Of a DNA stretch of 64,000 nucleotides, positions 13,540 to 14,318 are shown piece by piece. Source of the stretch: Macrostomum lignano (Eukaryota); NCBI GenBank assembly GCA_002269645.1, contig NIVC01000633.1, positions 248,001 to 312,000 on the forward strand. Direction: 5' to 3'. The notes beneath the pieces were generated by a model. It saw only the letters and a program-made list of their open reading frames with translations. It did not search any database and was not told the origin of the DNA. Every line of letters begins with the position of its first letter. Within the stretch, counting starts at the first letter, position 1. Position numbers and translations under genes: made by a program.

Positions 13540-14318
13540 TTATAGGCAGCCGTCTGAACAGATTTCCAACCATTCCCTCCACTGTAGAACGGTTCTCTCA
13601 ATTGATAAAAGTAAATACGCCGCTAGGAGCCCCGGTTGCTGCTGCGCGCTTCGTAAAGACAGTTGAGATATGTGTCTCTATTTGCATACGCAAATGATAC
13701 GGGTTCTGGCAGAATCCGGTTGAGCAACTTTGATAATAACAACCTAGCAGTTCTACCATTGCCGTCGCTAAAGGGGTGTATGGTGAGAAACTTTTCTAGG
13801 AAATATGCTCCTGTCACTACTGCATCACGCAAGATTTGTGGCTCTTTTATGTCTCTAGTTAATTTTACCAGCTGCCGTTCAATATTTTCTGGGGCACTGT
13901 AATACACACTCGCGCCTGCTGGCTTGGCGTGCTTAATTCTATACGATCCCGCATTCGGGAGCAGTCCTCTGCACACGCGTGTGTGAACTTGTCTAACAAA
14001 CTCTGTGTCAATTAACCCCCTCGTGTCATTGAGGTGTATTGCCGCACTCCATAGATTGGCTGTGACCATACAGGACCGGGTTTTTATCGCTTCTTCTGCT
14101 TCCTCCCAAGTCAACGCCACCTCTCTCTCCTCAATGTTTACTTCAGTTACGAATGCCAGCCGGGCTAGATGTGTGAATTCTAAGCGCTCCTTTGCGGTCA
14201 ATCCCTCGATTCTTTTCCTAGTGTCTGATAACAATCTTTCAATGAGGGGTAATCTGGCGCGCACGCTCTCGTTGCTGAAATAGGGGTTATCAGTTATACC
14301 CTCCTCCATGTTCTCCAT
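13540..14318 (-). CDS. Fic-domain AMP-transferase; a frameshift at ~13626 hides the last ~28 aa
   Basis: Canonical HPFSDGNGRTAR motif, plus VHTRV...AGSYR and an N-terminal EVNIEE. Adding one C gives ...NRGSLAAYLLLSIERTVLQWREWLEICSDGCL* with the stop at 13542-13540. Confidence 0.93.

Follow-up and report, generated by a model that had tools for sequence, protein, structure and literature searches.

The Fic gene at the right end of the element

A 64,000-nucleotide stretch of the Macrostomum lignano genome (GenBank assembly GCA_002269645.1, contig NIVC01000633.1, positions 248,001 to 312,000 of the forward strand; hereafter the window) carries a Polinton-like element without protein-primed DNA polymerase B (pPolB), all genes of which lie on the minus strand and the first of which, in the direction of transcription, encodes a Fic protein (Table 1). 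The gene is a real cargo kept by selection, belongs to a Fic subfamily other than FICD, rides on a family of Polintons that has no polymerase, and is likely host-derived. The minus-strand open reading frame (ORF) starting at 14318 matched Pfam Fic at 53.6 bits (cut-off 24, E = 4e-14), and residues 181-192 (window 13743-13778) read HPFSDGNGRTAR, a canonical HxFx(D/E)GNGRxxR catalytic motif. The ORF is intronless, begins 77 bp inward of the inner edge (14396) of the right terminal inverted repeat (TIR), and has EVNIEE at residues 59-64. In all these respects (Fic identity, complete catalytic loop, an intronless first gene adjoining the right TIR, and EVNIEE near the N-terminus) an earlier prediction made from the letters alone, here called the original prediction, was correct.

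That prediction had also taken 13540-14318 as one ORF, which is not the case in the window. The frame shifts after codon 230, near 13629 and inside a short single-base run, and ends with a stop at 13623 after 231 aa; most sister copies encode a form of 259 aa. The 28 residues cut off correspond to the last helix (H229-255) of the model of P0001 and are kept in 145 of 149 family rows. P0001, the best protein match, is from M. lignano and is probably the annotation of one element copy, not independent support. Contigs assembled from public sequencing runs read through without the frame break in 8/8 runs, with full depth at the break site; such contigs drop rare variants, so that a true mutation in the single window copy is possible. 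Besides Fic, the integrase and three further genes are broken in the window copy, and breaks in 20 sister copies are spread across all genes. Because the break is absent from the contigs of all eight runs and other genes are broken likewise, the frameshift is probably an assembly error; were it real, the window protein would have lost its last helix and would likely be defective.

The octamer [TC]ATAAATA occurs nine times on the coding (minus) strand of the element and not at all on the plus strand (300 base-shuffles: mean 0.55, maximum 4), and six of the nine boxes stand 26-57 nt before a start codon, that of Fic and those of five other element genes. As the element's own upstream box thus precedes Fic too, the gene is built into the layout of the element.

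Copies and selection

Searching the worm's own genome with the Fic sequence returned 66 matches. The best 30 of these 66 loci comprised 17 with unbroken frames of 257-259 aa, two that stop at 231 aa (the window copy and L012) and 11 that are split or partial, two of the latter being pieces of one copy; frames of 257-259 aa were therefore found in 17 of the 19 best copies. The catalytic motif is intact in 19/19 of these, with no amino-acid change at 181-192 among 18 copies and the motif present in L019. Among the diverged intact copies L003, L018 and L019, ratios of nonsynonymous to synonymous substitution (dN/dS) were 0.26, 0.33 and 0.29 (Fisher p = 5.5e-6 for the L003/L019 pair), and variation was silent at 15 of the 31 codons that vary among 18 copies (p = 0.0015). 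The Fic cargo is kept by purifying selection. Presence in other copies, which the original prediction had proposed as a check, is thereby established, and the outcome that it named as refuting, a decayed recent capture absent from sister copies, is contradicted.

A second polymerase-less family in the same genome, with a capsid protein 85-88% identical and the same gene order, had neither Fic nor the 117-aa ORF next to it in 8/8 copies read past that point (a ninth copy, read less far, is outside this count); similarity to this sister family ends at window 13159. Decayed relatives of the window element at ~75% DNA identity carry both. Fic and the 117-aa ORF are therefore an old family-specific module, absent there and present in decayed copies, which was gained here or lost in the sister family. 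The 117-aa ORF had no match in Pfam, NCBIfam or Atlas, and its single-sequence model (predicted local distance difference test, pLDDT, 38.6) was unusable; it may resemble PC4.

Fold, inhibitory helix and predicted location

An AlphaFold2 (AF2) model of the natural sister protein P0001 in its 259-aa form (pLDDT 94.9) has the helical Fic fold, and Foldseek matched it best to FICD and to Fic proteins of class II (TM score 0.64-0.76; E = 2e-8 to FICD). The family profile aligns along the linker, inhibitory helix and core of FICD, the helix columns with low confidence. In the columns of the family alignment (149 rows), position 64 is Glu in 135/137 and position 59 has an acidic residue (Glu or Asp) in 125/136, and position 63, mostly Gly or Ser, is Glu in 3/136. 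The auto-inhibitory signature (S/T)xxxE(G/N) was found in 4/136 subfamily rows as against 44/45 generic Fic controls, and [ED]xxxxE in 122/136. The element protein does not have the signature, reading EVNIEE instead, and has Glu in both candidate registers, E63 and E64. Since the family rows hold [ED]xxxxE, the departure from (S/T)xxxE(G/N) is a trait of the subfamily, common to the host gene. The original prediction was accordingly right that a Glu is kept within a differing consensus; the register it implied, E63, is the rarely conserved one, and the conserved Glu is E64. The relaxed auto-inhibition that it proposed is not borne out, the unusual flanks being family-wide and shared by the host paralogue, with Glu at both candidate positions and E64 intact.

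In characterised enzymes the inhibitory Glu competes with the gamma-phosphate of ATP (PMC3667792), and the equivalent Glu marks bifunctionality in AMPylation and deAMPylation (PMC6408439). Because the conserved Glu both gates and marks bifunctionality in those enzymes, a gated, possibly two-way enzyme is by analogy more likely than a released toxin. The element Fic has no signal peptide, membrane anchor or tetratricopeptide repeat (TPR), Pfam Fic being its sole domain match, and its Kyte-Doolittle maximum is 1.03; as there is no hydrophobic segment, its predicted site of action is the cytosol or nucleus.

Relatives, host genes and expression

A profile search of 1.84 billion representatives yielded 275 proteins at E < 1e-30. 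The Fic subfamily forms a branch apart from FICD and from generic bacterial Fic (support 100/99, bootstrap not fully converged). One member is from the chrysophyte Epipyxis, besides Macrostomum the sole organism named among 26 proteins looked up; another is found in viral contigs of 92-206 kb beside genes for Lon, FtsJ-like, ankyrin, leucine-rich repeat (LRR), dUTPase and TFIIS proteins, a giant-virus-like context. The comparison with FICD, bacterial and giant-virus Fic proteins that the original prediction proposed thus separates the element protein from the first two and places the protist and giant-virus members in another branch of the same subfamily. The exact motif had three matches in 185,579 prokaryote genomes, all of which scored as generic Fic (59-78 bits, compared with at least 184 for profile members). 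Protein-pattern scans of viral and metagenome contigs gave, among the matches listed, almost only generic Fic; phage records gave two weak Fic matches and Atlas only generic Fic clusters.

Apart from a canonical FICD locus (L155), the host genome has three genes of the non-FICD subfamily, two of which form a tandem pair. Beside the third stands a Fic-like ORF from which the catalytic motif has been lost (these genes and the ORF: L051 2440-2679 and 8299-9041, L052 611-1597, L057 4815-5540 and 7972-8703). The closest relative of the element Fic is host protein P0156, from one gene of the tandem pair (40% identity, 156 bits; the next match scored 137 and the rest at most 111). The P0156 gene, found on three colinear contigs, is split by a GT-AG intron of ~5.6 kb whose position corresponds exactly to the junction of element residues 76 and 77; the element gene is uninterrupted there. 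Its neighbours on the one contig examined are ORFs that we take to be MYRF-like and transporter-like host genes. Transcription of the neighbouring host Fic paralogue is on record (PMC12896417, row in Table S4a, baseMean 133). A clade of the element Fic, P0156 and P0162 had support of 100/99 in one tree and 100/98 in two others. The 45-row tree was built from 45 hand-picked rows of ~170, family rows shorter than 200 or longer than 400 aa being omitted except for a trimmed Epipyxis row.

Two other origins were rejected. FICD ancestry of the element Fic is rejected by the approximately unbiased (AU) test (p-AU = 6e-44 for a clade with FICD, represented by two rows). Recent bacterial contamination is contradicted by integrated copies with target-site duplications (TSDs) and by presence in the runs of eight studies of this one organism.

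None of the public runs is on record as RNA; two of them, X10 and X11, evidently are, since they splice the host gene that flanks the element. Two contigs stop at 14383, both from one study. The gene identifier of P0001 is absent from the supplements of PMC12896417 (differential-expression table) and PMC12801592, which is uninformative either way.

Origin and role

Host-to-element capture is likely, and the simplest reading, because the closest relative is an intron-bearing host gene and Fic is absent from the colinear sister family. Capture would have gone by way of the spliced RNA of the host gene, and the element's TATA-like box would drive transcription of the captured gene. The N-terminal helix, which ends at E63/E64, would restrain AMPylation and may support deAMPylation, like the equivalent Glu in FICD and EfFIC. 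The BiP-type target named in the original prediction is unlikely, as the protein has none of the targeting features sought above and FICD ancestry is rejected; the target is probably that of the host paralogue. The element would gain by copying or counteracting the modification made by that paralogue while the element is active, and may in this way use Fic to adjust host cell signalling. We lean, without great firmness, towards this account as a whole: a Fic gene with intact motif, kept by selection and placed first in a polymerase-less family of Polintons, likely a copy of a non-FICD host gene, its product predicted to be a Glu-gated cytosolic or nuclear enzyme that adds AMP to a host protein or removes it.

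Several observations weigh against it. On the side of structure, profile-profile alignment left the N-terminal helix out, either E63 or E64 may be the Glu that reaches R192, and region 116-142, aligned by sequence to the FICD flap, shows no strands when the model is assigned by DSSP. On the side of selection, 11 of the 30 loci have broken or incomplete frames, significance is borderline for L003/L018 taken by itself (p = 0.054), and the dN/dS of Fic exceeds the 0.03-0.11 of core genes compared with the sister family, a deeper comparison. Contigs of X10 and X11 cover Fic but the TIR as well, so that this cover may come from DNA carry-over of a multicopy element. In the trees, the element Fic is sister to P0156 + P0162 and not inside a host clade (98/85, 89/72), the AU test does no more than tolerate a clade of the element Fic with P0156 (p-AU = 0.16 and 0.32), and P0162 is of unrecorded source. 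The direction of transfer is for these last reasons unproven.

The same branching would suit transfer in reverse or from outside: the element lineage would have brought in Fic from a pool in protists or giant viruses, and the host gene with the intron would be a domesticated copy or have been acquired independently. We regard this as doubtful, though deserving of weight. The occurrence of the subfamily in a chrysophyte and a giant-virus-like contig, the near absence of the exact motif from prokaryote genomes, where its few occurrences are generic Fic, and the presence of Fic already in the old decayed copies all fit such a source. Set against them, the worm has at least three diverged subfamily members outside elements, both the sister family and elements with pPolB only are without Fic, and the protist and giant-virus members fall in that other branch.

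A wider scheme can be put forward only with low confidence. The large eukaryote and virus Fic subfamily, with its own inhibitory-helix code, would be a second AMPylation system in some animals, engaged in host-virus conflict; the Polinton would have captured the worm copy for use against that system as a decoy or deAMPylase, and Fic would act as the regulatory gene on the capsid-bearing half of a bipartite Polinton.

It is improbable that Fic is a de-repressed toxin with the 117-aa neighbour as its antidote. The two ORFs are gained or lost jointly, and in C. briggsae a protease carried by a Maverick has turned into a toxin with maternal effect (bioRxiv 10.1101/2022.07.12.499685), but the Fic protein has its own N-terminal helix with a family-invariant Glu, the neighbour lies downstream where class I antitoxins are coded upstream (PMC3667792), and with dozens of dispersed copies the loss of any one would presumably go unpunished. 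Nor was the toxin or addiction cargo of the original prediction supported on the other side of the gene, the 77 bp up to the TIR holding no ORF. Slightly less probable still is a neutral passenger, captured, amplified with the element and now decaying: the stops at 231 aa, the broken or partial loci and an expression that remains a prediction could be so read, but the reading is largely refuted by the selection signal (dN/dS ~0.3 with significant tests), and further opposed by the motif intact in all of the best copies, the element's own box upstream of Fic, and breaks as many or more in other element genes, which point to assembly noise.

Several independent eukaryotic Fic groups were gained by transfer (PMC4454073), and a review (PMC8097203) credits most metazoans with just one functional fic allele. 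This worm departs from that pattern: it has FICD, ~25 element-borne copies kept by selection and, as chromosomal genes, three or more members of a separate subfamily. A tractable animal of this kind offers a direct handle on the role of non-FICD Fic proteins in eukaryotes and on why invertebrate DNA viruses carry Fic, and the shifted glutamate code poses a clean structural question. A literature search, mostly without subscription papers, found no report of Fic in Polintons and no Fic domain in the papers listed on Polintons, Mavericks, adintoviruses, virophages or giant viruses, although bioRxiv supplements could list such cargo; it found no paper joining two of wsv406, nudivirus and Fic, and nothing relevant on viral Fic or on Polintons of M. 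lignano.

Structure and gene content of the element

Table 1. Features of the Fic-bearing element (window positions).
Feature	Position	Strand	Basis or remark
Polinton-like element, 10,524 bp, without pPolB; ends ACTACT...AGTAGT	4528..15051		TIRs, TSD, mostly colinear sisters at 96-99% DNA identity
6-bp TSD, left copy	4522..4527		
6-bp TSD, right copy	15052..15057		
Left TIR, ~640 bp	4528..5168		90% identity to right TIR over 648 columns, differences mostly gaps in internal repeats
Right TIR	14396..15051		Alignment to left TIR
[TC]ATAAATA box	14342..14349	-	31 nt ahead of Fic start; putative promoter
Fic ORF, window form, 231 aa	13623..14318	-	Early stop through frameshift near 13629
N-terminal helix 42-63 and conserved E64; predicted equivalent of class II inhibitory helix, [ED]xxxxE variant	14127..14195	-	P0001 model, profile alignment, family columns
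Catalytic loop H181-R192	13743..13778	-	Pfam Fic match; motif definition from PMC3667792
Fic gene remainder, out of frame	13540..13622	-	Comparison with sisters; last helix of 259-aa sister proteins
117-aa orphan ORF, travels with Fic	13152..13505	-	Absent with Fic from sister family, present with Fic in old decayed copies
Unnamed ORF, frame broken in window copy	12898..13167	-	Sister-family similarity stops at its start (13159)
Unnamed 226-aa ORF	11868..12548	-	ORF list and sister-family comparison
TATA-binding-protein (TBP)-like frame, no early ATG	11468..12004	-	NCBIfam E = 1.3e-4, far under cut-off; best PDB E = 0.003; dN/dS 0.09 against sister family
Two conserved Polinton-type ORFs, second broken in window copy	10544..11429	-	Comparison with other elements
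rve integrase, frame broken in window copy	9203..10279	-	Pfam rve E = 5e-10, over cut-off; single unbroken frame in 8/20 sisters
Putative minor capsid protein, broken in window copy	8064..9199	-	Label suggested by position
114-aa basic ORF	7676..8020	-	ORF list and element comparison
Likely major capsid protein, 427 aa	6363..7646	-	32% identity to matching ORF of pPolB-bearing Polinton, same genome
Likely maturation protease	5929..6366	-	28% identity to pPolB-bearing Polinton ORF
Likely packaging ATPase	5265..5894	-	Weak P-loop Pfam matches; 34% identity to pPolB-bearing Polinton ORF

Most of the 20 sister copies are colinear with the window element at 96-99% DNA identity; contig ends truncate two, another is rearranged, and C2210 and C4 contain extra DNA. 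The 6-bp TSD was seen in 10 of the 11 contigs that hold both element ends (among L268-L297). No pPolB was found in the window copy or in the sister-family stretches, and the colinear sisters have no room for one; the extra DNA of C2210 and C4 was not looked at. Two of ten pPolB loci fetched (L302 and L304) are 8.7-kb units that end in the element's terminal motif, are flanked by 6-bp TSDs and resemble the element in sub-terminal sequence, and no protein is common to these units and the Fic-bearing element. The ORFs of the likely capsid, ATPase and protease module are 28-34% identical to their counterparts in a pPolB-bearing Polinton of this genome. Library searches gave the module no match beyond the weak P-loop ones of Table 1, and the likely major capsid protein had no Pfam or PDB match in sequence searches. 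The two conserved ORFs at 10544..11429 are presumably PW and PZ, and we take the 114-aa basic ORF to be core-protein-like.

In the sister family (L158-L174) the likely minor capsid protein is only 27-29% alike in its middle part, the other genes being 70-88% alike, and this divergent middle is possibly a host-interaction surface. The TBP-like frame, which is strongly constrained, runs into the 226-aa ORF upstream of it, and in 1/20 sisters the two are fused; a TBP label occurs in a figure legend of PMC8502044, and the available text of PMC11161782 mentions neither TBP nor loss of the polymerase in such elements. The 18 bases just inside the terminal seven (window 4535-4552 and 15027-15044; L268-L297, L302-L304) are highly variable, with 13 variants among 28 ends in copies that are otherwise 96-99% alike. 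They are made of recurring blocks, the two ends of a single copy often disagree in them, and pPolB-only elements have them too; they may reflect exchange of ends in replication. Contig joints correspond to internally deleted forms of the element at window 9261-11272 and 6353-7175, the first matching the rearranged C12 copy. An 18.4-kb unit (G000:C56:643541-661960; L287, L288) has the element's ends and a 6-bp TSD and no Fic match.

The insertion splits the apparent last exon of a host galactose-3-O-sulfotransferase gene (4100-4521 and 15052-16361, minus strand; Pfam E = 8e-20), and run X10 has a spliced contig across the empty insertion site of that gene. Elsewhere in the window, 50200-55900 is a tandem array in which a 22-base unit recurs ~245 times at 97-98% identity.

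Comparison with known systems

Among cellular Fic proteins, metazoan FICD/HYPE (PDB 4u0z, 6i7l, 7b7z; PMC8097203) gave the best PDB matches and has the same order of linker helices, inhibitory helix and Fic core with a canonical motif. In contrast to FICD, the element protein has no membrane anchor or TPR and another inhibitory motif, at 19-22% identity, and the worm's own FICD is separate (L155). Class II proteins (SoFic, CdFic, BT_2513; PMC3667792) resemble it in having a single domain, a long helix that precedes the core and, where that helix ends, a conserved Glu, their (S/T)xxxE(G/N) being replaced by [ED]xxxxE in the element Fic subfamily. Class I FicTA modules have an upstream antitoxin gene; the element Fic, 77 bp from the TIR, has none.

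The best viral structural matches were models from BFVD of wsv406 of white spot syndrome virus (WSSV) and of a FIC-like protein of Oryctes rhinoceros nudivirus (E = 8e-9 and 4e-5). Like the element Fic they are stand-alone proteins in the range of 220-259 aa from DNA viruses of animals, but their carriers are large autonomous viruses, and the identity is 21-25%.

With Polintons, Mavericks and adintoviruses (PMC10748475, PMC8502044) the element shares long TIRs, a 6-bp TSD, an rve integrase and probable homologues of the capsid module; it differs in having no pPolB, in its length of 10.5 kb against a stated 13-25 kb, and in sharing its ends with the separate 8.7-kb pPolB-bearing elements. A parallel in cargo is that of nematode Mavericks (wasp proteases, krma kinases; bioRxiv 10.1101/2022.07.12.499685), likewise protein-modifying enzymes beside a TIR and thought to be host-derived. 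There the enzyme class is another and introns can persist, whereas the Fic gene is intronless, follows the element's own box and rides on an element without a polymerase. Given these precedents, for enzyme cargo on Mavericks and for Fic in animal DNA viruses, a Fic gene on a Polinton is a surprise of limited degree.
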